Source: Candidatus Saccharimonadota bacterium (GTDB lineage: Bacteria > Patescibacteriota > Patescibacteriia > 2-12-FULL-60-25). Taken from it: a stretch of 32,000 bases of DNA. The stretch is from assembly GCA_022843095.1 (NCBI GenBank), contig JALHOH010000002.1, positions 1 through 32,000 on the forward strand. Reading direction: 5' to 3'. Below, in pieces: positions 2,624 through 24,918 of this stretch. Below the pieces are notes generated by a model. That model was not told the origin of the DNA. It saw only the letters and a list, made by a program, of their open reading frames with translations, and made no database searches. The number at the start of each line of letters is the position of its first letter. Within the stretch, counting starts at the first letter, position 1. The position numbers and the translations under genes are program-made.

Positions 2624-2641
2624 CTCGCGCCCCGCGGCGCG

Positions 2642-3793
2642 CTATCTCGTCGGGATCAGCATGAGCACTTGCTCGCGGATTTCCGTGAACATCATCACGG
2701 CATAGGCCTCCGGTCGAAAGCCCCACCGCGTCCGATACGGAGACGACTCGGACCGTGTCGCCTCGTCGCGAATGCACGCGTGCCAGTCCTCGATCACCTC
2801 GTCTGGCAACGAGCGGATCGCGCTCGGGGGCAGACGCACGAGATAGAGTCCGTCCCGATGGGCGAAGCCCTCGCCCACACGGAGCGCGAGGCGCGCAATG
2901 TCCGGACGTTCGACCGAGGCCTTGCTCATCGTGAGCGCGATCATCGGCGTTTTCCCAAGAAATCCTGCGCTCGCGACGTACTTGTTCCCGACCGTGACGC
3001 TTGCGATGTAGTGCGGGTCGCTCGCAGAGATGTTCACAAAGAGTCGCGGGTCTTCTGGACCGAGCTGCGACGCGACAACTGCTTCTCGCAACACATCGAG
3101 CGTGGTTTCGATCTGCTCGCGCGTCGAGCCAAGTCGACGCAGTCGCTTTCCGATCCGAACGAGCGTCGTGTGGTCGAGCGGGCCAAGCACTGCGAGCGCG
3201 GTGCTCGACTCGTCGATCGTTGGATCGGCGCGGACACATGGCCCAGCGGCCGGGAGCTGGACACGCTCGATTACGGCGTTTAGCTCGTCGCTCGCCGCCC
3301 TCGCTTGCGCGCCGCCAAGGGCATTGGCAAGCGCTCGTGCGGCAGAGACATCCACGAAGGCAGACGATTTCCATAGTGCTTCGAACCAGGCGGCGAGCTC
3401 AGTGATCGTCGCTGCGGTGTCGATGAGCACCGCCATCTCGGTCCGGCGCCCCAAGCCCGCGTTGGTCAGGTTCGCCGATCCAACGAGCGCCTCTTCCGTG
3501 CCGATCACGACCTTGGCGTGTACCCCGCGACAGTCCTGCACCCGCTCATGGTGTGCTTCAATGAAGTCCGCCGCTCTCTGCGCCTCGTACCCCTCCGCGC
3601 GCAGCCACTCCTGCACGTCCGTCACGAGCCGCCACGAACTCGCACGCGAGGTCACCTCGAGCAATCGCTTAACCGAGAGGTAGGGGCCGACGATGTCGAC
3701 CTTCCCTCCTCGCGTGATCTTCGCGATGGCTCGCGCGAACGGCGACGTTCGCGAAGGCGCATCGAGCGAGTGATACACGAGCTTCTCCGCCAC
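2642..3793 (-). CDS. PLD-superfamily (single HKD motif) nuclease-like protein with an unknown ~230-aa C-terminal domain
   Basis: The motif HAKVVIGTEEALVGSANLTNAGL fits HxK(x4)D/E(x6)GSxN of phospholipase D/Nuc-type enzymes. Only one HKD copy is present, as in Nuc, which dimerises. The overlapping 2019..3374(-) and 2669..3283(+) frames are Arg-rich shadows. Confidence 0.75.
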   Translation of the reverse strand: MAEKLVYHSLDAPSRTSPFARAIAKITRGGKVDIVGPYLSVKRLLEVTSRASSWRLVTDVQEWLRAEGYEAQRAADFIEAHHERVQDCRGVHAKVVIGTEEALVGSANLTNAGLGRRTEMAVLIDTAATITELAAWFEALWKSSAFVDVSAARALANALGGAQARAASDELNAVIERVQLPAAGPCVRADPTIDESSTALAVLGPLDHTTLVRIGKRLRRLGSTREQIETTLDVLREAVVASQLGPEDPRLFVNISASDPHYIASVTVGNKYVASAGFLGKTPMIALTMSKASVERPDIARLALRVGEGFAHRDGLYLVRLPPSAIRSLPDEVIEDWHACIRDEATRSESSPYRTRWGFRPEAYAVMMFTEIREQVLMLIPTR

Positions 3794-3981: not shown

Positions 3982-4038
3982 ATGTCCAACCTGCCGAACG
4001 ACTTCGTCCTTCGATACGCCCGCCCGCCCGCGGAGAGC
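3982..4038 (+). pseudogene. displaced 5' fragment (19 codons, MSNLPNDFVLRYARPPAES) of the CBASS CD-NTase gene, cut off by the IS insertion
   Basis: The fragment ends exactly at the left target-site duplication copy. Deleting 4039..5621 joins it in frame to codon ACC at 5622 of the CD-NTase body. Confidence 0.65.
4031..4038. repeat. left copy of the 8-bp target-site duplication CGGAGAGC
   Basis: Identical octamer abuts the outer side of both IS termini (4031..4038 and 5614..5621). Confidence 0.8.
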
Positions 4039-7099: not shown

Positions 7100-7145
7100 G
7101 GATGGTTGCACACGGGCAGTTCATTCTGCGTCCGCGAGGGCCGTC

Positions 7146-8429: not shown

Positions 8430-8455
8430 TGGACAGAGACCGCTCACTCGCTGGT

Positions 8456-8812
8456 TCAGCGGTGTACGCCGCAGAAGCCGTAGTTTCCGGGAAGTGCGGA
8501 GTGCATACACGGTGAGCCATTCTGCAATGCGCTCTTGCACCGCGCGCCAACGCGTCCGCCACCACCGCCCGCGCGCTCGTTTCGAGGTGGAAGTCGCCCG
8601 GTCTTCCGCTCATAGCTCTCGATCAAGCGCTTCTCTTCCTTGAACGCGGCGGACTCCGAGCTGTGCACTTGGTAGTCGAAGTGTGTGAAGTGGCTGTACC
8701 CACGCGCACGAAGATACTGCTTGATCGCTTCGGGACTGCCCTCTGAAACTGTGCCTTTGCCGATGCGGACGATCCTATTCGCGCGAAACAATCGATACGA
8801 CACAAACGCCAT
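8456..8812 (-). CDS. GIY-YIG-like nuclease domain protein with a Cys/His-rich tail
   Basis: MAFVSYRLFRANRIVRIGKGT...YLRARGYSHF...EEKRLIESYERKTGRLPPRNE follows the GIY...YIG...R...E...N spacing. The tail is CKSALQNGSPCMHSALPGNYGFCGVHR. Start chosen at the internal Met (codon 19 of ORF 8456..8866). Confidence 0.5.
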   Translation of the reverse strand: MAFVSYRLFRANRIVRIGKGTVSEGSPEAIKQYLRARGYSHFTHFDYQVHSSESAAFKEEKRLIESYERKTGRLPPRNERAGGGGGRVGARCKSALQNGSPCMHSALPGNYGFCGVHR

Positions 8813-8919
8813 GGGTCGCTCCAGTTGATGGGGGGATGAACATTTTCCGTGTGTCGCGAGATACACAAGCGCAACCCCCCGAGTCGAAGCGGCCAGCTCA
8901 TCCCGGCCTCACGCCGCTT

Positions 8920-8939
8920 CGCCCAAGTTCCCTTCGACG
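8920..8939. repeat. left arm of a perfect 20-bp inverted repeat (CGCCCAAGTTCCCTTCGACG)
   Basis: Its reverse complement CGTCGAAGGGAACTTGGGCG occurs at 9984..10003. The two arms bracket the catalytic core of the tyrosine recombinase gene. Confidence 0.9.
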
Positions 8940-9012
8940 AAGCGCACGGCTCCTGTCGCCCTCGTCAACGGCCTCGCCCGCCAGGTACCCTGCGTGGTGA
9001 ACCGTCGCGCAT

Positions 9013-10113
9013 ATGCGTGAACACCTCGACGACTTTCGCCGCTTTCTCTCCGCCAGAAACCACGCCCCACGAACCCAATCCACGTACGCACGGATCGTGG
9101 AGACGTTCTTCGCGTTCCGCGATCTGCCTGTGAAAACAGAGCCAAGTCTCGCAGACGTCGAAGCCTTCCTCGTACGCCCAAAGCAGACCGGCGCCGTGCG
9201 AGCCCCGCGAGCCCGAAACCTCGACCTTGCCGCATTGCGCGTGTTTTTCCGCTTCGCCGTAGAGCACGGCCTCCTCGCGCGGGACCCCACGAAAGGCATC
9301 CGGCTCTTGCGTGAGCCCGCACACGAGCCCGCTGTTCCAACGCTCGGAGAGATCCGCGCGATGTTCTCCGCGGCAGCCCAAGAGCCGGACCCCGTCGCGC
9401 GGAGCCGCAGCATCGCGCTCCTCGCGGTTTTGTCGCAGACCGCACTGCGTGTGCACGAGGTGGTTGGGCTCGACGTCTCGCAACTCGAGCCGGTCAGCGC
9501 GTCGCTCCTCGACGTGCACGGGAAAGGCGCGACCCGCCACAGCGTCGCGCTGAACCCCGATGCCCTCGCGTTGCTCACAGCGTGGGTCGAGACCCGCAGC
9601 GCGATCGCCAAAGCAGGGGAGACCGCGCTCTTCGTCGGGCTGCAGACGGGCACGCGGCTCTCGGTCCGCGCCGTGCAGCACGTGATCGCAGTCCTGCGCG
9701 CAAAGGCAGGCATCACGCGCAAAGTGAGCCCGCACAGCTTCCGTCACGCAGCCGCGACACACATGCTGACCGCCGGCGCCGACGTAGCGGTTGTCGCGGG
9801 CGCGCTCAGACACGCCTCCGTCACGACGACCATGCAGTACCTGCACCTCGTGGACACGCACCGCAGGCGCGCGATCGCGACGCTTGCCGCCGCAATTCCA
9901 CCAGAGCTGCGCGCGTCATCCGCCGAAGCCTCCGTCCCACCGACGCGCGAACAGCCAGTCACTTTCCGGCCCGAACGGACTTGCGTCGAAGGGAACTTGG
10001 GCGCAACGTCGAGCGGTCCATTCGGGCTGGTTTTCCCCACGCAGATGTCGCGTTCGGCGAGGTCTGCGTGTCCCGCGATCGCCGCGCGCTGCGCCACTTC
10101 GAGCTGCGCGTAG
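9013..10113 (+). CDS. tyrosine site-specific recombinase (XerC/XerD / phage-integrase family)
   Basis: The N-terminal SAM-like core-binding region reads FRRFLSARNHAPRTQSTYARIVETFF. The catalytic region reads ALRVHEVVGLDV...GKGATRH...HSFRHAAATHMLTAGADVAVVAGALRHASVTTTMQYLHL, giving the R..H-x-x-R..H..Y signature. About 65 extra C-terminal codons run through the right IR arm. Confidence 0.88.
   Translation: MREHLDDFRRFLSARNHAPRTQSTYARIVETFFAFRDLPVKTEPSLADVEAFLVRPKQTGAVRAPRARNLDLAALRVFFRFAVEHGLLARDPTKGIRLLREPAHEPAVPTLGEIRAMFSAAAQEPDPVARSRSIALLAVLSQTALRVHEVVGLDVSQLEPVSASLLDVHGKGATRHSVALNPDALALLTAWVETRSAIAKAGETALFVGLQTGTRLSVRAVQHVIAVLRAKAGITRKVSPHSFRHAAATHMLTAGADVAVVAGALRHASVTTTMQYLHLVDTHRRRAIATLAAAIPPELRASSAEASVPPTREQPVTFRPERTCVEGNLGATSSGPFGLVFPTQMSRSARSACPAIAARCATSSCA
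9984..10003. repeat. right arm of the perfect 20-bp inverted repeat
   Basis: CGTCGAAGGGAACTTGGGCG is the exact reverse complement of 8920..8939. Confidence 0.9.
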
Positions 10114-10156
10114 CTGAGCGAGGAGGACCGAGCCCCTCAACCGCAGGAGTCCCTCC

Positions 10157-11554
10157 GTGTCGCGCTTAGCTCTGCTCGTTGTGTTGTTCGTCTTCGGCTG
10201 TACGTCGCCGCCGCCTCCTGGACCCGATGGAGGCGGCCGAGACGGTGCCGTCGCGGTGATGGATGGCGCGGTCGTGGATGGCAGCGCCGTCGGCTGCGCC
10301 TCTGCGGCGGAGTGCGACGACGGCATCGATTGCACGGTCGATCGCTGCGATCTTGGCCGCTGCGTCCACCCTGTGGTCGCGGCACGCTGCACCGGCGGCG
10401 CGTATTGTGACCCACGGCGCGGTTGTGTGATGGGGCGCGTGTGCGGAGGCGATAGCGACTGCGCCGACATGGATCCTTGCACGCGAATGGAGCGCTGTGA
10501 CGCGTCCTCACGAACGTGTCGCTCCGAGCCGCTCGACGGGGACCAGGACGGATACCCGCCACTGGTTTGCGGGGGCTCGGACTGCGACGACGCTGATCCG
10601 CTCGTGCACCCGGCAGCGTCCGAACGCTGCAATGTGCGCGACGACAACTGCGACGGCCGCGTCGACGACGGCGTTCAGATGTGTGGCTCCTCGTGTCTCC
10701 CCGAGACGGGCAACGGTGGCTGCGGGCTCGGCTGTGATCGCGCGGTGCTCTGCTACGACTTCCTCGGCTACCGGAGCTCGATCAACGTGCCGAACGGCGC
10801 AGACTGCGTCGCGGGAGCTTGCCGTTGCGCCGCAGGAAGCGGGGCGCGCTGCGACACTACAATCGAGTACCTGGGCAGCAGTCAGTCCGGGGATCTCCGC
10901 ATCACGGGCGTTACCGCGTGCAACGTGGACTTCATGACGAACCCGTTCTTCTGCGGGAACTGCACGACAAACTGCACGCGCATGTTCGGCCGGGACGGCG
11001 TCTGCGAAGCGGGGATGTGCCGTTGTCCAGCGGATCGCCCCACGCTGTGTGGGACGGCGATGAGTCCGATCTGCGTCAATACGCAGAACGACACCCGTAA
11101 CTGCGGGCGCTGCGGAAACGCCTGCGGCGCCGGGCAGCACTGCGTTGCGGGCATGTGCTCCGACTGCATGACGGCCGGCGAGATCTACTGCCCTGGCCCT
11201 GGCTGCGTGAACCCGCAGACCAACCCGTTCAACTGCGGGCGCTGCGGAAGTGTGTGCCCGAGCGGCGTGAGCTGCGTGAGCGGGCGTTGCGCGTGCCCAG
11301 CGGGCACAGAGCTTTGCGGTGGGACGTGCATCAGCGTTTCGGACGACCCAATGAACTGCGGCGGCTGTGGGCGGCGCTGCGGCTGCGGCGAAGGCTGCGC
11401 GGCAGGCGCGTGTACGCCGTCTCCGAGCTGCTCCGGCGGAACCACGATCTGCGCTGGCGCGACGGTCTGCCCGTTCAACTCGAACCAGCACTGCGGCCGC
11501 TGCGGGAACGCGTGCGGGGTGGGTCAGTCCTGCTGCCGGGGGACGTGCGTGTGA
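10157..11554 (+). CDS. secreted Cys-rich lipoprotein with a MopE-like metal-binding motif and NCGxCGxxC repeats
   Basis: The signal peptide carries a lipobox (LLVVLFVFGC). DQDGYPPLVCGGSDCDDADPLVHPAASERCNVRDDNCDGRVDDG matches the putative metal-binding motif common in Myxococcota. There are at least 5 repeats of N/FxCGxCGxxCxxGxxCxxGxC. The antisense 10508..11614 ORF is an Ala/Arg shadow. Confidence 0.8.
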   Translation: MSRLALLVVLFVFGCTSPPPPGPDGGGRDGAVAVMDGAVVDGSAVGCASAAECDDGIDCTVDRCDLGRCVHPVVAARCTGGAYCDPRRGCVMGRVCGGDSDCADMDPCTRMERCDASSRTCRSEPLDGDQDGYPPLVCGGSDCDDADPLVHPAASERCNVRDDNCDGRVDDGVQMCGSSCLPETGNGGCGLGCDRAVLCYDFLGYRSSINVPNGADCVAGACRCAAGSGARCDTTIEYLGSSQSGDLRITGVTACNVDFMTNPFFCGNCTTNCTRMFGRDGVCEAGMCRCPADRPTLCGTAMSPICVNTQNDTRNCGRCGNACGAGQHCVAGMCSDCMTAGEIYCPGPGCVNPQTNPFNCGRCGSVCPSGVSCVSGRCACPAGTELCGGTCISVSDDPMNCGGCGRRCGCGEGCAAGACTPSPSCSGGTTICAGATVCPFNSNQHCGRCGNACGVGQSCCRGTCV

Positions 11555-11696
11555 GGTGTGAGGTTCGCGAGGACCGCGCTGCATACCCGTCGCTCGGTTC
11601 GTCGTGAGGGCCACTTCACCGCTGAAAGACCTAAGGTATTCACGGCTCCGTCCGCCTTGACGGCTGTGCTCGCAGGCGGTTCGCTGGTGTCAGAAT

Positions 11697-11972
11697 ATGA
11701 CAGTATTGAACAAGAGCCAGGAGATTGTGCTTGCCTCGCTCGCGCAGCTCGCAGTCGTGCGGCGACAGGGAGGCGCTGATACGTTCGGGCCTCGCAGCCG
11801 TGAACTCTTCGAGCGTCTCGAAGCCGTGTTCCGCGGCGCGGGCGTCGACCTCGAGCCGCTCCTCGACGGCATCCTTGCCTCGCAGGAGGTGGAACCGCCC
11901 TCGCTCAGCGCCGCGCAGATCGGCGAGCTCGTCCAGGCGATCCAAGCCTCGGGGATCGCGACGAACCTGTAG
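11697..11972 (+). CDS. small hypothetical protein (91 aa)
   Basis: G/C at the third codon position is clearly enriched in this frame and the composition is helix-like. Competing minus-strand ORFs look like shadows. No SD sequence seen. Confidence 0.5.
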   Translation: MTVLNKSQEIVLASLAQLAVVRRQGGADTFGPRSRELFERLEAVFRGAGVDLEPLLDGILASQEVEPPSLSAAQIGELVQAIQASGIATNL

Positions 11973-12320
11973 CGACTCAACTTACGTCTCGGTCCCATGC
12001 GAAACAGTCGGTAAAGAGGGCGCGAACCTCGATCCATCCCGGAGCTCCAGCAGAAACACGCATGAACTGCGCAAAAAGGCAGTTATCTAGAGCCGCCGAG
12101 TTGCATGACGATATATGGCTATGGCACTATGCGAATAGTGATGTTATGCGCTTCGTCCGCTATGCGCGGTGGACAGAATCGCGTATCGTTGTGCCCTTTT
12201 CAAAGGAATCGCTGGAATCTTACATCATACTACTTGTGCTTGCTCGGTTCGTTCCTACGAATCAAGCGAACACTATCGCCCTCTAGGTTGTGACCGACTG
12301 AAGAACAAGGAGAAGCTCAA

Positions 12321-12509
12321 ATGTCAGGTCGACCTCCTATCATTTTCAAACGCGAATCGCTGGTGAGCATGATGCAGCCGAAGCAGCCAGAAGCTGCCAA
12401 GGCCCCATCTTCGCCATGTTCACCAACTAACCCGATCGCGGCTCCGAGCAGCACGCTGGTGTCGCCAGTGATTCCATCCGCGGGAGATCCTCCTTCCGAC
12501 TCGAAGTGA
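12321..12509 (+). CDS. small protein sORF-A (62 aa), paralog of 17834..18025
   Basis: AAGGAG sits 8 nt upstream of the ATG. The N-terminal 20 aa (MSGRPPIIFKRESLVSMMQP) are 15/20 identical to sORF-B, with 9 synonymous codon differences among the conserved residues. The shared C-terminal pattern is VSP..P.SA..P.SDSK. Confidence 0.75.
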   Translation: MSGRPPIIFKRESLVSMMQPKQPEAAKAPSSPCSPTNPIAAPSSTLVSPVIPSAGDPPSDSK

Positions 12510-12554
12510 CGTTAGCTCTTCTCAAGCTACTCCTTCGAGTTTTATTGTTGGGGG
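12499..12554 (+). promoter_or_regulatory. conserved hairpin plus U-tract plus G-rich SD-like box between sORF-A and the CHAT gene (putative attenuator/terminator)
   Basis: ACTCGAAG (12499..12506, the last codons of sORF-A) pairs with CTTCGAGT (12533..12540) across a 26-nt loop. TTTATTGTTGGGGG follows. The same architecture and loop length occur after sORF-B. Confidence 0.5.
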
Positions 12555-12561
12555 TGCATCC

Positions 12562-14520
12562 GTGAGCAAGAGTGGGCCAGGTCAGCGTGGGCAGCAGCGC
12601 AAGCGGTCGAAACGCAGCGAATTTCGCAAGCAAGCAAAGGGGGTGCGGGTAGACTTAAGTCGAGTGCTGAGCATTCGAACCGCAAACGAGCTCGTCGAGA
12701 TGTTTCGAGCGTTCAGTTGCGCGTGTGGCTCGGCGGATGGTCTCCTCGACTCGTTTGAGCGATACCGCACGGAGTTTTTGGCGCGGCTTCGAGTTCCTCA
12801 CGGAGAGCGCCAGCACAAGCTCGACGCAGACATCCTGCTTATTGACAGTTCCGGGCAGTTGCAGCAGGCAGGAACGACGCGTCCCGAGTATGACCTATAT
12901 CTGCCCAATCTTCGGCTGAGGTTCACCGACGGCGTCATCGATGAGCCCCAAAACGGCGAGGGGCTCGCGCCGTACGTCGTTTGGGCGAATTCGGTACGCC
13001 GGGTCGGTGTGGGCGTCGTACGAGAAGTGAACGCGGTGGCTCGAAACGCTGAGTTTTGGAAAGAGCGTCGGAGCGAACGTGGCGAGATAGACTACGAAAG
13101 CGAGTCTGTCGGAGATCGCTATAAACCGCCCCCCAGCAATCGCACGCCGCCTTATCAGACAATTTTGAGTGCCCCCATTGCCATCCTGAAGACGAACACC
13201 GCGAACGATCCGTTGCAACGTGATGCTCTCGAGTTCGAGTGCATTGGAGTGTTGAATATTACGCACGATGAGTCTGTGCGGTTTTCTGTGTCGGACTGTC
13301 ACTGGGCTCAAACCTGTGCAGGACTGCTGGGTGTCATGCACGACTTGCTGCGAATCGCGCTCGCGCGACTTGGCTCGACGGGGGACTGTAACGACCTGTT
13401 GCTTCGCCGAATGCGGAAGCCTCAATCAAGCACGACGGAATCGCGTCTCCCCTCAAGGTCCACCCCAACCATAAGGGTATCCCCAATGAAGATTCTCTTT
13501 CTGTCGGCCAATCCTATCGATGCACTTCAGCCACTGGATCTCGAACAGGAGCTTCGGCAAGTGCAAGGCGTTCTTGAGGGAGTGAGATATCGGGATCGTA
13601 TCAGCGTGATCCATCAACCCGCAGCGACTTCCGACGACGTCGTGAAAGCAATGCGCGCACATGCTCCATCGGTAGTGCACTTTAGTGGGCACGGCAGTAA
13701 AAGCGGAATCGCCCTGCGTGCGGAAAATGGGAAACCGTTTCAATCCGTCAGCGCAGAGGCGCTTGCGTTTCTGTTCGAAGATCGTGGAGTGCAGCTTGTT
13801 GTCTTCAACTCTTGCTACTCTGTCGCACAGACGATGAAACTGTCGGCAGTTGTAGGGGCCACCATTGGTACAACGTCTGCGGTTGCCGACTCAGCGGCCT
13901 TGAACTTTTCGAGAGCATTCTACAGAACAATCGGCGATGGGTATTCTGTGAAGGACGCTCTACGAGATGGCCAATCTGCAGTAATACTAGGTGCCGATGC
14001 AAACGTATTCCACTCCCACGGCAATCTCGAGCAACGGTTGGTTAGCGATTCTTCCCTTGACCAGCGGCCGATCGATCTCCGCGGTGAGGTGAGAGGTCGA
14101 GAAACGCTTGAAACCACGGAAGATCTCGAGTTGCGGGATGCTCAGTCAAGGATCTCGTCAATTTCGCAAACACCCGTTCCTCCTTCACCTAGATTCAAAA
14201 TTCCGGTCGGTACCGCGCTCATCGTCACTACGCCAGTCATCTTCACGCGGCAAGAAACTCTTGAAGAATACGTGCGTCGAGTGGGATTGACAAATTTCCC
14301 TCAACTGGGTGCACGAGAGATTCCGTTGACGGGTCCTCCAGCGATCGTGCGGAGGTGCGATGCGTCTCTCCTGGAGTTGGCAGTGACAACGCCGGCTGGA
14401 CTGCTAACCGTTGACGTTCCTCAAGATCGAATTGACGCGTTCTCCCCAGATGCAAACCCGCGAACGCTTCGACTTAAGGGCCGCATGGTGCTATCTGCTG
14501 AGCGGGCGTTCGTCGAGTAA
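12562..14520 (+). CDS. CHAT-domain (caspase-like) protease with an unknown ~290-aa N-terminal region and a ~150-aa beta-rich C-terminal region
   Basis: The central region reads MKILFLSANPIDALQPLDLEQELRQV...APSVVHFSGHGSKSGIAL...VQLVVFNSCYSVAQ...ATIGTTSAVADSAALNFSRAFYRTIGDGYSV. This is the canonical CHAT layout with the His (HFSGHG) and Cys (NSCYS) dyad. GTG start lies 7 nt after GGGGGTG. Confidence 0.85.
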   Translation: MSKSGPGQRGQQRKRSKRSEFRKQAKGVRVDLSRVLSIRTANELVEMFRAFSCACGSADGLLDSFERYRTEFLARLRVPHGERQHKLDADILLIDSSGQLQQAGTTRPEYDLYLPNLRLRFTDGVIDEPQNGEGLAPYVVWANSVRRVGVGVVREVNAVARNAEFWKERRSERGEIDYESESVGDRYKPPPSNRTPPYQTILSAPIAILKTNTANDPLQRDALEFECIGVLNITHDESVRFSVSDCHWAQTCAGLLGVMHDLLRIALARLGSTGDCNDLLLRRMRKPQSSTTESRLPSRSTPTIRVSPMKILFLSANPIDALQPLDLEQELRQVQGVLEGVRYRDRISVIHQPAATSDDVVKAMRAHAPSVVHFSGHGSKSGIALRAENGKPFQSVSAEALAFLFEDRGVQLVVFNSCYSVAQTMKLSAVVGATIGTTSAVADSAALNFSRAFYRTIGDGYSVKDALRDGQSAVILGADANVFHSHGNLEQRLVSDSSLDQRPIDLRGEVRGRETLETTEDLELRDAQSRISSISQTPVPPSPRFKIPVGTALIVTTPVIFTRQETLEEYVRRVGLTNFPQLGAREIPLTGPPAIVRRCDASLLELAVTTPAGLLTVDVPQDRIDAFSPDANPRTLRLKGRMVLSAERAFVE

Positions 14521-14607
14521 TACTCCGCCGAAGGGGGACGGTTTTCCGTTTTGTCCGTCCGTTATCCCCGGTTCTGTACCCAATACCACACGGCGTTCAA
14601 GCGGCTC

Positions 14608-14651
14608 TACCAATACAAAAATCTCCCAACCGGGAGGTTTTTGTATTGGTA
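14608..14651. terminator. strong hairpin (20-bp stem with one G-U pair, 4-nt loop), A-run and U-run arms, potentially a bidirectional terminator
   Basis: TACCAATACAAAAATCTCCC-aacc-GGGAGGTTTTTGTATTGGTA, about 90 nt downstream of the CHAT gene stop. Confidence 0.7.
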
Positions 14652-15027
14652 TTTCATGAAGGAATCGAAGGGTATCGAGGCGAGCCAATGATTTGGCTGG
14701 ACGAGAACCCCGGCTGCGGATGAGTGCCGAGGTAGTTGCTGATTCCCCGAGGCACGAGGGAGCAGGATTCCCCTTGGGGCTGCCATGTTGAAGACCGCGC
14801 TATTCCAGTCGAAACCATCCATCATACTCTGCTGCAACCATTGACAAATTCATCGATTTTAGGTATGTTGCTATATCGGATATCCGGTAGTCGAAGGGGG
14901 TGCTGGGGAGCGTTCGCGTGATCTCTTCCAATGGGAGGCCGCGCGAAAGCTCCCCAGGACCGCGTGAAGTTTCTCGAATGGTCGAGTAAACTGACGCTAT
15001 TCCCCTAGGGCTGCGACAGGTGTTTCG

Positions 15028-15450
15028 ATGAACGCAACTGATCGTTCGATCTACCTCGGTGACCCGTCCTCCGATCCGCCCCCTGTGTGGCGCGAGGACG
15101 CGCCTGACGCGTTCAAGTGGCCGGAAGGAGCCGTGTTCGCGGTTGTCTTCGTCCGGCCGGACCCCGTGACCTTCTGGTGGAACTCCCACTACGGCGACGT
15201 TGCGTCGTTCACAGAGTTCTTTGGCGAAGACGGTTGGCCGGTCGCGTTTCCGGCCGACAAGCGGGACCTCGCTGAACGACTCCGACGCGAACTGCAAGCG
15301 GCCATCCACGATTGGAGAGGATGGGAGCAGCACGAGTGGGAAAGCGTCCGAAATCACCCGCACTTGTGTGGACGCTTTCGGAAGCTCAAGCACGTGCTGA
15401 CGGGACTCGCTGAACACACGAGTGCGCTCGCCAATGCCGCAACTCGCTAA
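15028..15450 (+). CDS. hypothetical protein (140 aa), Trp/acidic-rich
   Basis: Protein-like composition and AGGTG 5 nt upstream of the ATG. Followed by a 10-bp-stem hairpin. The overlapping 14800..15519(-) ORF looks like a shadow frame. Confidence 0.55.
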   Translation: MNATDRSIYLGDPSSDPPPVWREDAPDAFKWPEGAVFAVVFVRPDPVTFWWNSHYGDVASFTEFFGEDGWPVAFPADKRDLAERLRRELQAAIHDWRGWEQHEWESVRNHPHLCGRFRKLKHVLTGLAEHTSALANAATR

Positions 15451-15477
15451 CCTACTACACTCGCAAACCAACCAACT

Positions 15478-15509
15478 ACACCCCGTCTTCGATACTGAGG
15501 ACGGGGTGT
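15478..15509 (+). terminator. hairpin ACACCCCGTC-12nt-GACGGGGTGT after the 140-aa ORF
   Basis: Perfect 10-bp stem read directly. The trailing U-tract is weak. Confidence 0.45.
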
Positions 15510-15534
15510 TCACTTTCACAAAGCGCAGAAACCG

Positions 15535-16158
15535 ATGGCGCCTCCAACGCTCAAACGAGATCAGATCCGATACCTACAAGTGCGTCCTGAAGCACGTGGG
15601 AGCGAGATTCGGGCCAATCCGCATAGCGAAGAGCCTGTGCGCCCCGCGATGGTATTGAGCGACTACAAACAACACGAACTCGAGTTGTTTGTGACCGCGT
15701 TCTCAACCAGTGCGGCAACGGGCCGAGCGAACTCTCGTGCGCTACTCGAGGAGTACGACACGCGACCGGCGCGCGTGCGAGGTCATATCGATGTCCAACA
15801 ATTGTGGACGTTCCCAACGTCACGGGATCGTTCGTACCATTCTACGCTACCAGTGGTGCGCAACGCGGACGTGGTTCGATCACGCGTGAAATCGTATCTT
15901 GCGAAGTCTCGACTGGCCGCTGGTAACGTGGTCTGGGTTGCGCTGCGCGCATCTGATAGGGCCCCCGTATTTCGGACACGCAACGTCACTTCTGCAGTAA
16001 CACGTTCAATTTCTTGGTTTTCTCCTTCTCTTTTTCCTAAGTACTTTCTTTTTCATGTCATGGAAGTCTCGTGGTGGCATCCTCAACGCGCTGTTTATTG
16101 CATAAGCGTCATCGATTACATCAGATCCTTGCTTTACTGTTTGTTTTTCATAGCATGA
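15535..16158 (+). CDS. doubtful hypothetical ORF (207 aa)
   Basis: Only an ORF-length argument supports it. No SD is present, and the C-terminal third runs into an AT-rich pyrimidine tract and looks non-coding. The true gene may be shorter (Met at 15649). Confidence 0.25.
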   Translation: MAPPTLKRDQIRYLQVRPEARGSEIRANPHSEEPVRPAMVLSDYKQHELELFVTAFSTSAATGRANSRALLEEYDTRPARVRGHIDVQQLWTFPTSRDRSYHSTLPVVRNADVVRSRVKSYLAKSRLAAGNVVWVALRASDRAPVFRTRNVTSAVTRSISWFSPSLFPKYFLFHVMEVSWWHPQRAVYCISVIDYIRSLLYCLFFIA

Positions 16159-16570
16159 ACATTTTTCCGATTCGCAGCGTATTAAAACGTATTGCGACAA
16201 CAATTTGCTTGACGATTCGGGTCTTGATGGTAAAAATGTAATCACCCTGACCATGTTCGCGAAAATGGCGTAATACCGCGTGATTGTTCGCGATTAATAG
16301 GGGAGCAGGGCCTTTGGGAAGGAGGTGTGTATATGTTGATCGGAGTGGATGGAGTGTTCGGCATCAGTGCAGACTGACTCCGGGCCCGCTGTCGCGTTCG
16401 TCGACACTTCTGTATCTCTACAATGCGCTCGCGCCCGTCATCTCGGTCTTGAGGTGCGGGTGCGTTTTAATTTGCGGGAATCAGGTATCTTCATCGAAAA
16501 GAGCCGTTTTTGTATAGCGCGTATCGTGAGCGTGGATGGGTGTGATCGCGATATGTATTTCCGGAATTTT

Positions 16571-16930
16571 CTACTCGGCGCAAGCGGCTGAAAGCTGTGA
16601 GCATCTCATTTGTTTATTGGAATAGTTACGTCTTACGGGAGATGCCTCAAACTGTTTGATGCTTGATATTGCGCGAATTTCAACAGTGCCGAGTCTTTTG
16701 CTCATTCCGGCGCAGCATTGCTGTTCCAGGCTTTGCGCATCGTTAAATTCGATCGTTCGGTGATTAGTTGCGCCAGTATTTGAGGTTTTTCCACGAATAT
16801 TTGATTTTGATGAATTTTGTTCAGTACGCGTTTGTCCGGATGAAGGGCTTATTAGTCTCCACTTGTTTGAAAAACGAGGTTCTGGATGATGACCGAGGTT
16901 ATCACCAGGCCCCCGAAGTGCATGCTTCAA
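16571..16930 (-). CDS. hypothetical low-complexity protein (119 aa) immediately downstream of the ATPase
   Basis: Starts 8 nt after the ATPase stop on the same strand and is the only long ORF in an AT-richer stretch. No recognisable motifs. Confidence 0.3.
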   Translation of the reverse strand: MKHALRGPGDNLGHHPEPRFSNKWRLISPSSGQTRTEQNSSKSNIRGKTSNTGATNHRTIEFNDAQSLEQQCCAGMSKRLGTVEIRAISSIKQFEASPVRRNYSNKQMRCSQLSAACAE

Positions 16931-16937
16931 CTACATT

Positions 16938-17705
16938 TTAGCCAAGCAGGTGCCGAAGATATGCCTCTGGATTTGCTGTAAAACTGCTCGTGATCTTGAA
17001 CGCCTCGGTCTCGCGGTACGTGGTGCGGCGGATCGTGTTGCCGTCGAAGGACAAGATGTCCGCGCCGGGGAGCGCGAGCAGGATGGGCGAGTGCGTCGCG
17101 ATGATGAACTGCGTGTCGCGCGCCCGAAGCGCACGGGCAAGCAGGACGAGAAACGCGAGCTGACGTTGGGGTGAGAGCGCCGCCTCAGGTTCATCGAGCA
17201 GATAGATCCCCGCGCGATCGAAGCGGGCCTCAGCGAGCGCGAGAAACGCCTCGCCGTGCGAGCGCTTGTGTAGCGAGGTTCCCCCATATGCGAGGAGGGT
17301 TCGTGCGTCGTCGCGTTGCAGCTCGTCGAGCTTCGTCGCGACGTTGTAGAAACTCTCGGCGCGGAGGAAGAACCCGGTGTTCAGCTTCTTTTTCCAAGAC
17401 AACCGAAGCGTCTCCGCGAGTCGTCCTGCAGGCGTTTCCTCGCCCACTCCGGACGACAGTCCATGAATGTTCTCGCTCCCACCCATGGCGTTGAAGCCAC
17501 ACGCTCGGGCGATGCCTTCGAGGAGCGTTGATTTGCCCGTGCCGTTCTCACCCACGAAGAACGTCAGGCGCGACCGCAGCTCGAGTGTGTCCAAGGTTGC
17601 GATTGTGGGGACCGTGAACGGGTAGCGATCGGGTACACGAATCCGCTCGCGAAGGATCGCGAGCGAGCGGAGCAATGGTGTGTCCTCGAGGTTCGTCTTG
17701 CGCAT
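16938..17705 (-). CDS. P-loop ATPase, COG3910-like (ABC/SMC-type AAA_21-like fold)
   Basis: Walker A is in FFVGENGTGKSTLLEGIA. It is followed by GFFLRAESFYN, SLHKRSHGEAFLAL, Walker B IYLLDEPEAALSP and the H-loop FIIATHSPILLALP. Size and motif order match the stand-alone ~250-aa predicted-ATPase family. Confidence 0.85.
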   Translation of the reverse strand: MRKTNLEDTPLLRSLAILRERIRVPDRYPFTVPTIATLDTLELRSRLTFFVGENGTGKSTLLEGIARACGFNAMGGSENIHGLSSGVGEETPAGRLAETLRLSWKKKLNTGFFLRAESFYNVATKLDELQRDDARTLLAYGGTSLHKRSHGEAFLALAEARFDRAGIYLLDEPEAALSPQRQLAFLVLLARALRARDTQFIIATHSPILLALPGADILSFDGNTIRRTTYRETEAFKITSSFTANPEAYLRHLLG

Positions 17706-17833
17706 AATAATTATTTGGGTTTAACCCCGAATCTTTTTTATGTATCCAGAATTCAGCTATTGCGCAATAAGTCACAGTATGCGATTCTAAATTTTAGGCG
17801 CAGATCGTATTCGCATTCCAAGGAGTACATCAA

Positions 17834-18025
17834 ATGTCGAATCGACCCCGGATTATCTTCCGACATAGTTCCTTGGTCAGTATGATGCAGCCAGCATCAG
17901 TGAAGGCGCCGAAATCCGCCGAGTCTTCTTCGGAAGGTTCGCTCACGGATTCAGGTGACGCGAAAGTCTCTCCGGATGCTCCCGCTTCAGCCGAGATCCC
18001 TTCTTCTGACTCGAAGGCGCGTTAA
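17834..18025 (+). CDS. small protein sORF-B (63 aa), paralog of 12321..12509
   Basis: AAGGAG sits 8 nt upstream of the ATG, the same spacing as sORF-A. N-terminus MSNRPRIIFRHSSLVSMMQP and C-terminus VSPDAPASAEIPSSDSKAR. Confidence 0.75.
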   Translation: MSNRPRIIFRHSSLVSMMQPASVKAPKSAESSSEGSLTDSGDAKVSPDAPASAEIPSSDSKAR

Positions 18026-18065
18026 CTTTATCTTAAGTCACAGCCTCGAGTTTTTTTGTTGAGGG
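18009..18065 (+). promoter_or_regulatory. conserved hairpin plus U-tract plus G-rich box after sORF-B (counterpart of 12499..12554)
   Basis: ACTCGA(A)GG (18009..18017) pairs with CCTCGAGT (18044..18051) with one bulge and a 26-nt loop. TTTTTTGTTGAGGG follows. The 23-nt core is 19/23 identical to module A. Confidence 0.5.
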
Positions 18066-18076
18066 TATTTCATAAA

Positions 18077-19174
18077 ATGTTGTATGTCGAGCATGGGGGG
18101 GCGGGGGAACGAAAGAATATTGATAGCCGAACAGTAATGTTAACATTGAGTCATGTGGAAACGGGATGGATAAATACGATCGCAATCGTGTTCTCTTTGA
18201 AACTCGGAAGACTCTCTGAACCCAAAGATCAGCGTGGAATACTGGATGCGTTGGCTGAGCTTCTTCGCCGGCAAGTTCCATCCGCGAAAGACCGGTCAGT
18301 CGTGAATGTCGGTTCGTTTTGGGACGTGGATGTCACCGATGATCGTTTCCGTATCATCGCCGTCGCGCGTGATCAAGACATTGATGCGCTCATTGGTCAG
18401 TTGCATGCGATAGACTCTGGGCAATTCCCTTCCGGAGTATTGGCTGGATCCCACGTCGCGACATCGGGACTTCAGTTGCGAGACGACTATGTACTGGTCA
18501 CGTCGCTCATTCGACGAGCGCTCTGGGGATACGTGTCCCAAGACACGATGGCTTTTTCGAGCGCTCAACTCGCGGAGTACTGGCGTCGCTTCAGTTCCTC
18601 GGCATCGAAAAGTCTCCTCCTCCTCGGATCACGGCAGAGTATCTCCAAGATCGAGCGCGGGTTTGGGGGTCGACAGCGGCTGACGGCTCATGGATCTCGC
18701 GTTTGGAGACCAATCGAGGCGTATACAATTGGCGGTTCGGGTTGGAATGGGTGGGGATTTCGAAGTACCGCCTGGCACCTTCTGACGGCGATGCTTGACG
18801 GAATCTATTACGAGCGTGCCGCGGCGCAGGGGATCCCATATGAGTTCATCGATTCGCGTGATTTCGTAGGATTTTTAGCGCGTGGTACGGCGCATTCGGT
18901 GTGTGACGGCTTGTTCTCCACGCCTCCGACTGAAAATGAGTTTAGGGTCGTCCAATCCTTTATAGTGAGCCGCTTCGCCGACCTCGTGTCCGGAAAATCG
19001 CGTTGCTCGCGGCTTGCTGGATTTGATGACTTTGATGGAGCGTCGTACGGACATCTGGGTGTTGATTCGATTGGCTCCGCTGAACGCTATTTTCGAGACG
19101 TTGGGCTCGATGAGCTGGTGCGTTTTTATGGTTTGGTAAGAGCGCTGCCGAGGACGTCATTGGTTCTTGGGTAA
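18077..19174 (+). CDS. hypothetical protein (365 aa from ATG 18077; ORF open from TTG 18056), no domain recognised
   Basis: Long ORF with protein-like composition directly after the sORF-B module. GAGGG lies 11 nt upstream of ATG 18077. No similarity to the CHAT protein is visible by eye. Confidence 0.65.
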   Translation: MLYVEHGGAGERKNIDSRTVMLTLSHVETGWINTIAIVFSLKLGRLSEPKDQRGILDALAELLRRQVPSAKDRSVVNVGSFWDVDVTDDRFRIIAVARDQDIDALIGQLHAIDSGQFPSGVLAGSHVATSGLQLRDDYVLVTSLIRRALWGYVSQDTMAFSSAQLAEYWRRFSSSASKSLLLLGSRQSISKIERGFGGRQRLTAHGSRVWRPIEAYTIGGSGWNGWGFRSTAWHLLTAMLDGIYYERAAAQGIPYEFIDSRDFVGFLARGTAHSVCDGLFSTPPTENEFRVVQSFIVSRFADLVSGKSRCSRLAGFDDFDGASYGHLGVDSIGSAERYFRDVGLDELVRFYGLVRALPRTSLVLG

Positions 19175-19265
19175 AAGGAATTCGGTTTTCTAGTGAATTT
19201 ACGTTGAGTGATTCCATTCTGGATATTTCTTGCTCATTTTGCCATCCCTCCGTACCATTCCTTCC

Positions 19266-22657: not shown

Positions 22658-23536
22658 ATGAAGGTTCCTGTCTATCATGGTCCAGATGGAGTCGTCGTGG
22701 TCGTGCGGTGGCGTGGAGAGGATGCTCCGCGGTTTATCCGAGGGTTGCGCGAGGTGATCGAAGCGCGCGAGTCTGCTCTGGATGAGGCGCCGAAGAAGCC
22801 GAAAAAGGCGCATACGGTGCCGCCGGCGACGACGGCCGAAGCGGTCGCGCGGGAAGAGGTCGGGATCGTCATCCCGAACACGGTGCCGCCCCCGGCTCCG
22901 CCTTCCGTGCATCCGCCGCGTTTGAACGTGCACCCCGCGATTCCGGATCTGTCCGATCCGTACGCGTTCGAGGTGCTTCTCGACAAGGTGCCGCAGATCG
23001 TGGATCCGACGGAGGTGGTGCCGCCGGTGCCTGTGCGCGCTCGGCGTCGTGCGCCGGTCCGCCGGACGTATCCGGATCGCGATAAGATGTTGAGAGTTCG
23101 GTGGCCGCTTCTGGTCGAAGGTCGCGTCCTCGCGGATTTCATGCGCTACAAGACGGACAATCGTTCCGGGTACAGTCAGCACATGCGCAAGGAGGCGAAA
23201 GCGCTGCTTGCGCGAGAGAAGCACCGGAAGTACAAGGGGATCAATCGGTTGGTCCGCGACGAGGTGCGCGACGGACTCGTGCGCGAGATCAACAACGACT
23301 GGCTGACCCATCCGTTGGCCTTTTGGAAGGATGAGCCGACGCCGAAGGGGTATCTCATCCGCGTCGTGCCGTGTCCGAACCAGCATCGTTTCCTGTTCTT
23401 TCTGCTGGATTTCGCGAACCGAGTGATCGTCGGGGTACATACGCCGGGATCGCTGAATCGGTCGCGAGAGGGTCGTGGAGCACGACGCCGCGAGTACCTG
23501 AACGACCCCGGCTGCCGCCGTCGGTCGCGTCGCTAG
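22658..23536 (+). CDS. hypothetical protein with a Pro-rich central region
   Basis: GGAGGAG lies 7 nt upstream of ATG 22658. The gene is followed by a terminator. The opposite-strand ORF 22616..23566 is an Arg/His-rich shadow. Confidence 0.55.
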   Translation: MKVPVYHGPDGVVVVVRWRGEDAPRFIRGLREVIEARESALDEAPKKPKKAHTVPPATTAEAVAREEVGIVIPNTVPPPAPPSVHPPRLNVHPAIPDLSDPYAFEVLLDKVPQIVDPTEVVPPVPVRARRRAPVRRTYPDRDKMLRVRWPLLVEGRVLADFMRYKTDNRSGYSQHMRKEAKALLAREKHRKYKGINRLVRDEVRDGLVREINNDWLTHPLAFWKDEPTPKGYLIRVVPCPNQHRFLFFLLDFANRVIVGVHTPGSLNRSREGRGARRREYLNDPGCRRRSRR

Positions 23537-23554
23537 ACACCCGTGACTCCGGGT

Positions 23555-23583
23555 CACGCATTCCATCAGGGTGCGTGTTTTTT
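23555..23583 (+). terminator. rho-independent terminator (CACGCA-loop-TGCGTG plus T7)
   Basis: Read directly downstream of the stop at 23536. Confidence 0.6.
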
Positions 23584-23625
23584 GTTGACCCTTTTCGGCA
23601 TTCGCCGCATCATACCCCCATTCGT

Positions 23626-24918
23626 ATGCAGCACTTCATTTCGCAGTTTCCTGGACTGGTCGGACAAACGGTTACGATCAAGGGATGGGCATATAACGTG
23701 CGATCCAGTGGATCGATCGCGTTTTTACAGATCCGCGATGGGTCTGGGTTCACACAAGCCGTCGTCGCCAAAACCGCCGTGGACGAGGCGTCGTGGTCCG
23801 CCGCAACGGACGCAACGATTGAATCCGCCGTGGAGATTACCGGCACCGTGAGCGCGCATCCAAAACAGGCGGGGGTCTTTGAGGTACAAGCAACGGCAGT
23901 CGTATTGATTCAAAAGGCGGAGGAATATCCGATTGGGAAAAAAGAGCATGGACCGGATTTTTTGCTGGATCAGCGTCATCTGTGGTTGCGCGCCCCAACG
24001 CAGTGGGCCATTCAAAAAGTGCGCAACGAAGTGATCTACGCGACCTACGATTGGATGCGTGACCATGGCTTTACCAAAATCGATTCGCCGATTTTTACGC
24101 CAAGCGCCTGTGAAGGAACCACGGAATTATTCGAGATCGATTATTTTGGCGAGCGCAAAGCCTACCTTTCGCAATCCGGGCAGTTGTATTTGGAGGCGGC
24201 GATTGGATCGGTGGGGCGGTGTTTTGACTTTGGTCCCGTGTTTCGTGCGGAGAAGTCGAAAACGCGTCGCCATTTGATTGAGTTCTGGATGATGGATGCG
24301 GAAGCGGCGTTTGTGGAGCACAAAGAAAACTTGGAAATCCAGGAACAATTGGTGTGTTGTATTGTGGAGCGCGTGCTCAAAAACTGCCAGGCGGAATTGA
24401 AGATTTTGGAACGCAACCAGGAGCCATTGAAGCAGGTCCAGGCACCGTTCCCGCGGTTAACGCACGCCGAAGCGATCGCGAAACTGCGGACGCTCGGCTC
24501 GGACATCGGCGAAATGGATGACCTTGGCGCAGACGATGAGACGTTGCTGACACAGCAATATGATCGTCCGATTTTCATCGAAAAGTATCCGGCCGCGGTG
24601 AAAGCGTTTTACATGAAGCGTGATCCAAACGATCCGACGCGCGTGTTGAATGCGGATTTGCTGGCGCCGGAGGGGTATGGGGAGATCATCGGCGGATCGC
24701 AACGTGAAGAGAACTACGACGCGCTGTTGGAGCGTATTCGCGAGCACAAATTGCCGGAAGAGGCGTTCAAGTGGTATCTCGATCTGCGTAAATACGGTGG
24801 CGTACCTCATTCCGGATTTGGCTATGGTCTGGAACGCATCGTGACCTGGATTTGCGGTATCCACCATGTGCGCGAAACCATTCCGTTTCCACGTTTGCTC
24901 AATCGATTGGAACCATAA
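23626..24918 (+). CDS. asnS: asparagine--tRNA ligase
   Basis: 430 aa. OB-fold VTIKGWAYNVRSSGSIAFLQIRDGSGFTQAVV, class II motifs FRAEKSKTRRHLIEFWMMDAE and GGSQRE...GFGYGLERIVTWICG, and a C-terminal FPR...L.P typical of AsnRS. Confidence 0.92.
   Translation: MQHFISQFPGLVGQTVTIKGWAYNVRSSGSIAFLQIRDGSGFTQAVVAKTAVDEASWSAATDATIESAVEITGTVSAHPKQAGVFEVQATAVVLIQKAEEYPIGKKEHGPDFLLDQRHLWLRAPTQWAIQKVRNEVIYATYDWMRDHGFTKIDSPIFTPSACEGTTELFEIDYFGERKAYLSQSGQLYLEAAIGSVGRCFDFGPVFRAEKSKTRRHLIEFWMMDAEAAFVEHKENLEIQEQLVCCIVERVLKNCQAELKILERNQEPLKQVQAPFPRLTHAEAIAKLRTLGSDIGEMDDLGADDETLLTQQYDRPIFIEKYPAAVKAFYMKRDPNDPTRVLNADLLAPEGYGEIIGGSQREENYDALLERIREHKLPEEAFKWYLDLRKYGGVPHSGFGYGLERIVTWICGIHHVRETIPFPRLLNRLEP
24886..24918. 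repeat. 33-bp direct repeat copy 1 (last 10 codons plus stop of asnS)
   Basis: TTTCCACGTTTGCTCAATCGATTGGAACCATAA is repeated exactly at 26411..26443. Confidence 0.95.

Follow-up and report, generated by a model that had tools for sequence, protein, structure and literature searches.

The window considered here, comprising the first 32,000 nucleotides (nt) of contig JALHOH010000002.1 from a Candidatus Saccharimonadota bacterium (assembly GCA_022843095.1), contains two paralogous small open reading frames (sORF-A and sORF-B), each placed directly upstream of a large gene, which encodes a CHAT protease in the first case (module A) and a protein without detectable relatives in the second (module B). 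Each module is read, with a probability of about 0.4, as a two-gene unit on a portable, translation-coupled leader cassette, in which the sORF product acts in trans on its own partner as an inhibitor-like or antitoxin-like protein. The coupling step, in which a hairpin and a mask over the downstream Shine-Dalgarno (SD) sequence would be opened by the ribosome completing the sORF, is common to this reading and its leading alternative, and is considered probable from the predicted RNA structure.

The proposed sequence of events is as follows. By default, the hairpin would terminate or attenuate transcription and also mask the SD of the large gene, so that the small protein would be made in excess. 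Translation of the large gene would be confined to read-through transcripts and would require that the structure be melted by a ribosome completing the sORF, a form of translational coupling by unmasking. The released sORF product would then act on the partner encoded downstream of it; its variable middle would be partner-specific, and the N-terminal 20 residues shared by the two sORFs would provide a common docking or turnover motif.

A paralogous pair of small genes

A six-frame motif scan and a repeat search found the sORF twice in the window (Table 1). Both copies have the AAGGAG-8 nt-ATG start context that had been described in an earlier note made from the sequence alone, and in both modules this SD is stronger than that of the partner gene. 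The full-length products align with 44-47% identity (47% by MAFFT; BLASTP E 5e-11). A recount of the N-terminal region returned the figures of the earlier note, namely identity at 15 of the first 20 residues, with 9 of these codons differing only synonymously. Differences among the N-terminal codons number 4, 5 and 11 at the first, second and third positions, respectively, and the proportion of synonymous differences (pS, by the Nei-Gojobori method) is saturated at 0.88, compared with 0.18 for nonsynonymous differences (pN); thus, a recent DNA duplication is ruled out and long-term selection on the peptide is required, as the note had argued.

The remainder of the sORF is divided between a non-conserved middle of approximately 24 residues, in which amino-acid identity between A and B is at chance (p 0.23), as expected from the note's description of it as variable, and a conserved C-terminal third of approximately 18 residues. 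The alignment of the C-terminal third, also noticed earlier, holds at 11/18 residues (p 0.001) and exceeds the expectation from composition, even when the terminal SDSK is removed (7/14 residues, p 0.02). The distance from the N-terminal motif to SDSK is steady within 1-2 residues (62, 63 and 61 in sORF-A, its ortholog described below, and sORF-B). A conserved block 3' of the stop codon, likewise reported before, matches at 21 of 22 positions, a degree of similarity attained by none of 100 shuffles, and occurs at only these two places in the window. Serine accounts for 19-25% of the sORF codons and proline for 10-21%, dispersed and without a tandem run at a defined site; the products are probably small, disordered proteins rich in Ser, Pro and Ala.

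The extent of the similarity was determined by cutting both loci into matching pieces, for which random 60-mers of the window provided a background nucleotide identity of 0.49 +/- 0.04. Identity between A and B is 0.49 over the 60 nt 5' of the sORF SD, 0.82 from this SD to the ATG, 0.65 over the N-terminal codons (75% at the amino-acid level), 0.52 in the middle, 0.62 over the last codons before the hairpin, 0.76 over the hairpin, U-run and downstream SD (the 3' element that was described as the most conserved stretch at the nucleotide level), and 0.48 over the 60 nt 3' of the downstream SD. Since identity is at chance outside the interval from SD to SD, the paralogous unit is a cassette of approximately 250 nt bounded by the two SDs (12307-12555 in module A and 17820-18066 in module B).

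Closer comparison was possible for module A. A 3.3-kb Logan contig (L001, from sample SRR30545106) carries a 96%-identical CHAT relative preceded by an ortholog of sORF-A (L001:835-1026), so that the synteny which the earlier note had looked for is retained in a close relative. Sample DRR545329 also contains relatives. The two sORFs differ by six synonymous changes, two nonsynonymous changes (P23S and A40T) and one inserted Pro codon that keeps the frame. The resulting dN/dS of approximately 0.11 (pS 0.126, pN 0.014), below the value of 1 that the note had set as a limit and in line with its claim of purifying selection, is near the 0.17 of the adjoining CHAT gene (pS 0.105, pN 0.017); thus, the sORF evolves like an ordinary protein-coding gene of this genome. 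The eight substitutions are confined to the variable middle, and as six of them are synonymous, the middle appears to be constrained within the A lineage, though unrelated between A and B. The paralog and ortholog comparisons together support the note's claim of a translated peptide, and both sORFs appear to be real protein-coding genes under purifying selection. Antisense coding was considered and rejected: an open frame on the opposite strand does coincide with it in wobble positions, but this frame is less conserved (10/19 versus 15/20), and in module B that strand has no start that would give an open reading frame (ORF) of at least 50 amino acids (aa).

Upstream of sORF-A, a non-coding stretch (12110-12300) has only 2 changes in approximately 167 nt relative to L001, compared with a divergence of about 4-6% elsewhere. 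It may contain the promoter or operator of module A, or encode a small RNA; nothing comparable lies upstream in module B.

Table 1. Coordinates of the features of modules A and B and of the left flank, in window positions.
Feature	Positions	Strand	Remarks
SD AAGGAG of sORF-A	12307..12312	+	8 nt 5' of ATG; left edge of paralogous unit
sORF-A	12321..12509	+	62 codons + TGA; product MSGRPPIIFKRESLVSMMQPKQPEAAKAPSSPCSPTNPIAAPSSTLVSPVIPSAGDPPSDSK
N-terminal 20-codon motif of sORF-A, MSxRPxIIFxxxSLVSMMQP	12321..12380	+	conserved as peptide; 15/20 residues identical to sORF-B
Anti-SD CCUCC of module A	12489..12493	+	within Pro-Pro codons of sORF-A; predicted to pair with downstream SD
Terminator-like hairpin A	12498..12541	+	dG -17.1 kcal/mol; 5' arm GAC UCG AAG; stop codon in stem
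U-run A	12540..12549	+	UUUUAUUGUU; directly 3' of hairpin; part of 22-nt conserved block
SD GGGGGU of CHAT gene	12550..12555	+	right edge of paralogous unit; predicted to pair with anti-SD
Partner A, CHAT protein	12562..14520	+	652 aa; identical to an NCBI protein of 652 aa on a 525,788-bp contig
Inverted repeat	14608..14651	.	20 bp, one mismatch, 4-nt loop; A/T runs on both flanks
SD AAGGAG of sORF-B	17820..17825	+	8 nt 5' of ATG
sORF-B	17834..18025	+	63 codons + TAA; product MSNRPRIIFRHSSLVSMMQPASVKAPKSAESSSEGSLTDSGDAKVSPDAPASAEIPSSDSKAR
Anti-SD CCCUUC of module B	17998..18003	+	within sORF-B codons Ile-Pro-Ser
Terminator-like hairpin B	18008..18052	+	dG -15.5 kcal/mol; 5' arm the same GAC UCG AAG codons; stop TAA in stem
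U-run B	18051..18060	+	UUUUUUUGUU
SD GAGGGU of partner B	18061..18066	+	predicted to pair with anti-SD CCCUUC
Partner B	18077..19174	+	365 aa from annotated ATG 18077; 372 aa from upstream TTG; identical to a database protein
PLD-family nuclease	2642..3793	-	left flank
Tyrosine recombinase	9013..10113		left flank
Cys-rich MopE/Stig1-repeat protein	10157..11554		left flank

The predicted RNA element and the large genes

The 3' end of the sORF and the spacer beyond it fold alike in the two modules, with z scores relative to dinucleotide shuffles of -3.3 for A (an 86-nt segment) and -3.0 for B. The last three sense codons, which form the 5' arm of the hairpin, are nucleotide-identical in A and B, in contrast to the saturation of synonymous sites elsewhere; the first part of the conserved post-stop block forms the 3' arm, and the block continues into the U-run. 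A consensus structure of three sequences (the two modules and L001) has 30 pairs, with 92% of cells paired as against 34-46% when the partners are slid. In the helix predicted between the anti-SD and the downstream SD, 100% of cells are paired, with one compensatory change (C:G to U:A) between A and B; in the hairpin stem 94% are paired, with two compensatory pairs (G:C to A:U and G:C to C:G); and the outermost helix has one (G:C to A:U). These four pairs changed on both sides come from three sequences, which are far too few for statistical proof of covariation. The hairpin of L001 differs by a single change (U:A to U:G). Both the anti-SD:SD helix and the hairpin persist in the minimum-free-energy fold of each whole leader.

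The conservation of the C-terminal codons and the post-stop block would thus be largely that of an RNA element, composed of a terminator-like hairpin and a helix masking the downstream SD. In a coherent picture, constraint would act on the C-terminal codons through the RNA and on the N-terminus through the peptide. A regulatory leader, one of several roles suggested in the earlier note, thereby gains weight, and the peptide could act in cis or in trans.

No Rfam family matches the 3' element. A simple terminator scan did not list the two hairpins, the stems being interrupted and the loop limit of the scan being 8. No conserved antiterminator was found: the strongest pairings of the 5' arm with upstream sequence remain weaker, at -9 to -13.5 kcal/mol, and lie at positions not conserved between A and B. 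No sigma-70-like promoter was detected between the start of the sORF and the start of the large gene in either module; the test is a weak one, and stop and start are separated by roughly 50 nt. A C-rich Rho-loading site in the middle of the sORF was rejected as a common feature (C/G ratio 1.6 in A but 1.0 in B), as was an integron attC-like site, for which no match to the R''/R' core was seen by eye and the integrase context is wrong.

The large genes follow on the same strand, 52 nt (A) and 51 nt (B) after the sORF stop and 6-10 nt after their own SDs. No similarity or common domain was detected between their products by BLASTP, as the earlier note had judged by eye. Its identification of a CHAT protease in module A is upheld (Pfam PF12770, E 7e-13; PDB 8tl0, E 8.5e-19). 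This protein consists of an unassigned N-terminal region (residues 1-300), the CHAT domain (approximately 305-490) and a fast-diverging C-terminal region; H377 and C418, the His/Cys dyad, are invariant in 15 aligned sequences. The AlphaFold2 model is confident only over residues 305-497 (predicted local distance difference test score, pLDDT, 64-95), with flanks below 50, and no relatives of the first 300 or last 150 residues were found outside the lineage. No SAVED domain was found by Pfam, and the match to the PADLOC SAVED_CHAT model spans only profile positions 272-451, the CHAT part.

Compared with L001, the most diverged part of the CHAT gene is 14044-14520 (residues 495-652; pS 0.27, pN 0.069), the N-terminal region having pS 0.063 and pN 0.003, and the CHAT domain pS 0.027 and pN 0. 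The pattern suggests that a possible recognition domain has undergone recombination or diversifying change. The inverted repeat 3' of the gene is likely a bidirectional terminator closing module A.

The product of the large gene of module B has the 372 residues of the earlier note if translated from an upstream TTG, and 365 from the annotated ATG. Its sole match among 5.8 billion proteins was its own entry, and no match was found in Pfam, PADLOC, NCBIfam, PHROGs or PDB. The mean pLDDT of its AlphaFold2 model (33) is too poor for a fold search.

Distribution and genomic setting

The earlier note had envisaged a conserved small protein with swappable effectors; the searches lend no support to a widespread family of this kind, as no further homolog was found in any collection searched. 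The exact sORF sequences are absent from a collection of 15 billion proteins, and both sORFs are therefore unannotated. A two-sequence profile found no homolog among 5.8 billion word-indexed proteins, and a HMMER scan of 1.84 billion cluster representatives gave a single match, which is a repeat artefact with SLISLLQPQ units. Scans with back-translated motifs of GTDB genomes, JGI metagenomes and IMG/VR found no further sORF, tblastn against plasmids and phages found no homolog, and the profile had no match in PDB. The conserved RNA block had 12 chance matches in metagenomes and viral contigs, none with a hairpin or an sORF. No sORF is present upstream of the genes for six distant CHAT homologs. 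A RecO scan found no close relative among GTDB species-representative genomes, the lineage being poorly sampled. The family has so far been seen in only one bacterial lineage, and because every homolog search was empty, the term 'swappable' rests on two modules in that lineage. The resemblance to modular defence systems that the note had proposed also found no support, since, apart from the CHAT domain itself, nothing matched a model of a defence system.

The left flank of the modules (1-11974) has a G+C content of 63-68% (about 65%), compared with approximately 55% in the rest of the window, and encodes a CoiA_N/HTH protein in addition to the products listed in Table 1. Two other loci share this left element; homology with them ends abruptly at 11974, just 3' of a 91-aa ORF, and different DNA, without an sORF or a CHAT gene, lies beyond. 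The junction beside module A resembles a mobile-element end or a hotspot of recombination. To the right, core genes follow (ruvX, recO and those for class II aminoacyl-tRNA synthetases). No cluster mates were found for partner B or for the PemK-like gene described below, whereas the genes on the ruvX side have them. From the homology break and the missing cluster mates, both modules appear to sit in a variable island of approximately 7 kb (roughly 11975-19200).

Three features lie between the modules: a 140-aa ORF, a PemK/MazF-like gene (15535..16158) and, on the minus strand, a gene for an AAA_21/PtuA/AriA-like ATPase (16938..17705). The first two (15028-16158) are separated by a hairpin. The 140-aa ORF has no family match, and the first 113 residues of the 207-aa protein that follows match PemK/MazF exactly at the Pfam threshold, leaving a 90-aa extension; they are a possible atypical toxin-antitoxin pair. 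The ATPase gene (16939-17703) is 92.5-93.6% identical in nucleotide sequence to a gene in three conjugative-element-like loci with TrwB/DUF87, Replic_Relax, an integrase and an HTH_17 protein; the similarity covers the gene only, the flanks being unrelated. It appears to be a single transferred or captured gene with sharp edges, 128 nt from sORF-B. Between these genes, in an apparently non-coding setting of 46% G+C (16160-16930), there is a 14-codon ORF (within 16319-16410; ATG 16334, MLIGVDGVFGISAD, stop 16376-16378) with AAGGAGG 8 nt upstream and a terminator-like hairpin (16390-16406) after it, which could be another leader or mini-ORF.

Further from the modules, one strand carries two genes for class II (Asp/Lys/Asn-type) aminoacyl-tRNA synthetases (23371-24918 and 27647-29083), which are separated by 2.7 kb and each encode an OB anticodon-binding domain. 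A 33-nt sequence, TTTCCACGTTTGCTCAATCGATTGGAACCATAA, occurs as an exact direct repeat at 24886-24918, where it constitutes the 3' end, including the stop, of the first of these genes (23371..24918), and at 26411-26443; the copies enclose approximately 1.5 kb of DNA of higher G+C content with long ORFs without a family match, and look like att-type repeats of a small insertion into the gene end. In the left flank, four tandem copies of a 10-nt unit, GATCTCCTCC, occupy 1597-1636 between two divergent ORFs.

Readings of the modules and comparison with known systems

Several features argue for a role of the sORF product in trans. Its length of 62-63 aa is typical of small partner proteins, its middle is constrained within A and fully diverged between A and B, and its setting is toxin-antitoxin-like and defence-like. 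In type II toxin-antitoxin systems, small disordered antitoxins, such as the 63-aa PaaA2, are encoded 5' of the toxin and translationally coupled to it. The modules resemble these in having a small upstream gene with an SD stronger than that of its partner, in the conserved N-terminus and variable remainder of the paralogs, and in their location in an island with PemK/MazF-like and AAA_21/PtuA-like genes. They differ in that neither an antitoxin family nor a DNA-binding fold was detected for the sORFs, the partners do not figure among catalogued toxins, and a hairpin spacer stands where the genes usually overlap or abut. Thus, the modules apparently cannot be filed under a known toxin-antitoxin family, and only the CHAT domain of partner A is clearly assigned. 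Partner A resembles the CHAT defence proteases (PDB 8tl0; PADLOC SAVED_CHAT) in its CHAT domain with a conserved His/Cys dyad, but has neither SAVED nor another recognisable sensor domain, and the likeness is confined to module A.

A number of points weigh against this reading. Toxin-antitoxin-type pairs normally overlap or abut, and to find a terminator-like hairpin in a spacer of 52 nt between them would be unusual. Searches with the sORFs in Pfam, NCBIfam, PADLOC and PHROGs found no family, and no known family of antitoxins or inhibitors. A folded domain would need more than the 20 conserved residues, and the 21% proline of sORF-A argues against a helix-forming binding peptide. The position of the conserved C-terminal third beside the SD-masking hairpin fits a peptide that arrests or senses in cis at least as well, and calling partner B an effector is an assumption. 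As for the evidence itself, coding sequence rich in Pro and Ser is expected to contain CCUCC-like strings by chance; covariation and dN/dS were derived from three sequences (A, its near-identical ortholog, and B) with very few events; and the 6 of 8 synonymous changes in the ortholog of sORF-A have a p of 0.004-0.005 under neutrality, but all eight are transitions, which raises the expected synonymous share and weakens the test somewhat.

The foremost alternative, possible but somewhat less likely, is a purely cis-acting sensory leader peptide without function after its release; the dwell time of the ribosome over the 5' arm of the hairpin would decide the state of the terminator and SD mask, and hence downstream expression. 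Either the N-terminal 20-mer, already outside the exit tunnel, would be bound co-translationally by a cellular or phage factor, or the N- and C-terminal motifs would modulate the progress of the ribosome. This is the logic of SecM, MifM and VemP or of the toiL upstream ORF (uORF), and the same sensor before two unrelated genes would mean one signal for both. The layout of conserved ends and non-conserved middle, with its steady spacing, is what such a leader would have, since the spacing would put the N-terminal 20-mer just beyond the exit tunnel as the ribosome reaches the hairpin. The embedding of the stop codon in the SD-masking hairpin, the toxin-antitoxin-atypical spacer, and the exact coincidence of the duplicated unit with the leader, downstream SD included, as is natural for a regulatory cassette, are also in its favour, as is an outline match to described features of monitoring substrates (PMC7897499) and toiL (PMC12121999). 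On the other hand, the sORFs encode neither a signal peptide nor a transmembrane segment, the downstream genes do not belong to a monitored machinery, no antiterminator pairing is conserved, and 62 codons are many for a classical leader and few for a monitoring substrate. Moreover, a mere spacer would not need the purifying selection observed on the middle in the A lineage, and the identity of the SDSK codons at the nucleotide level allows RNA alone to explain that part of the C-terminal conservation. Action in trans and sensing in cis are not mutually exclusive.

Known systems provide a measure of both. Monitoring-substrate arrest peptides (SecM-secA, MifM-yidC2, VemP-secDF2, ApcA/ApdA/ApdP) are encoded by upstream ORFs of which the 3' end, together with the intergenic spacer, forms a stem-loop that sequesters the downstream SD; they have a functional N-terminal element, topogenic in nature, and a conserved C-terminal element with the arrest sequence, joined by a hydrophilic linker, and their target is the protein-localisation machinery (PMC7897499). 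The modules are alike in that the sORF lies directly upstream of the gene to be regulated, an SD-sequestering stem-loop is predicted in both and in the consensus, and a ribosome at the end of the upstream ORF would open it. They differ in that the sORFs have no topogenic N-terminus (no hydrophobic run exceeds the 3 residues IIF; the highest Kyte-Doolittle averages are 0.7-1.1 over 15 residues and 1.2-1.5 over 9), are 62-63 aa long rather than 80-200, precede genes for a CHAT protease and a protein without relatives rather than Sec or YidC components, and have neither sequence similarity nor a RAPP-type motif. Judged by the absent topogenic N-terminus, the other targets and the size, the sORFs are apparently not members of this class.

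In Escherichia coli, the toiL uORF controls the TopAI-YjhQ toxin-antitoxin transcript, and the position of the ribosome on it has been proposed to remodel a structure occluding the ribosome-binding site (PMC12121999). The modules share with toiL a translated uORF upstream of a potentially toxic gene and, by prediction, an RNA structure occluding the downstream ribosome-binding site. They have no homology to it, their peptide is conserved, their ORF is much longer, and a hairpin and U-run of the intrinsic type are predicted, in contrast to the Rho-dependent termination inside the downstream gene of the toiL transcript. In classical ribosome-mediated attenuators (trpL, hisL, pheL), a hairpin and U-run separate the structural gene from a leader ORF that has an SD of its own, and trp-type leaders do not need selection on the peptide sequence. 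The same arrangement is predicted here, but with no antiterminator found, no obvious run of regulatory codons, an sORF 3-4 times longer and a peptide under selection; the modules therefore do not appear to be trp-type attenuators. By analogy, they may work like the uORF-mediated SD unmasking of SecM-secA, MifM-yidC2, VemP and toiL.

An unlikely explanation is that the sORFs are stand-alone small-protein genes, or dual-function small RNAs, with their own intrinsic terminators, and that the large genes are independent or expressed by trivial read-through, the adjacency being meaningless. Both sORFs are preceded by their own strong SD and closed directly by a hairpin with U-run, the two large genes are unrelated to each other, and the surrounding island is a mosaic of unrelated fragments, all of which such genes would lead one to expect. 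However, the similarity of the paralogs runs past the U-run through the downstream SD and ends there, the anti-SD:SD helix with its compensatory change is predicted in both modules, the distances from stop to start and from SD to start are short and no promoter-like site was detected there or inside the sORFs (by the weak test above), and the order of sORF and large gene occurs twice and again in L001.

A variant of the cis-acting leader, with somewhat smaller prospects still, is a portable co-translational sensor, in which a factor (a chaperone, protease or viral protein) engaging the N-terminal 20-mer, with its basic-flanked hydrophobic core RPxIIF[KR], would set the dwell of the ribosome and thereby switch on the CHAT protease and a second, unrelated effector together. 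If true, it would extend the monitoring-substrate principle of SecM and MifM from protein export to conflict or defence effectors under a cytosolic cue.

It is very improbable that the sORF encodes the precursor of a ribosomally made natural product or a pro-substrate cut by the adjacent CHAT protease, as the small peptide with its 'leader-like' conserved N-terminus, variable remainder and adjoining protease in module A might bring to mind; module B has no protease or recognisable modifying enzyme, there is no core with a Cys/Ser/Thr pattern and no transporter or modification gene nearby, and it is the C-terminus that is conserved, not a variable core. Hardly credible at all is the view of the sORFs as debris, whether N-terminal remnants of a larger family or the front of the downstream gene cut by a stop, frameshift or programmed recoding, for although sORF-B and the 365-aa ORF share a frame with one TAA between them, sORF-A and the CHAT ORF are in different frames with a second in-frame stop 3' of sORF-A, the frame of the post-stop block relative to the downstream gene differs between the modules, so that the block is no coding extension, stop position and length are conserved, the ortholog holds its frame through an indel at a dN/dS of about 0.11, and no larger protein among the 1.84 billion cluster representatives contains the motif, apart from the repeat artefact; the pseudogene debris that the earlier note had named as a refutation is thus not upheld.

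The favoured reading remains that of a translation-coupled leader whose small product acts on the protein encoded downstream. From their sequences, sORF-A and sORF-B appear to constitute a new peptide family, to which a coupling device of a familiar kind is attached. The importance of the finding is limited by its occurrence in one poorly sampled lineage and by the familiarity of the coupling mechanism itself. ORFs of this size escape annotation, yet a caspase-like protease appears to have one of those described here as its control element or partner. If the coupling is true, a reusable leader, consisting of a peptide and an RNA gate, would have moved as a unit in front of unrelated genes, placing a protease and a second protein under one control logic, and the cassette would be a compact system of approximately 250 nt for how bacteria keep potentially toxic effectors silent.

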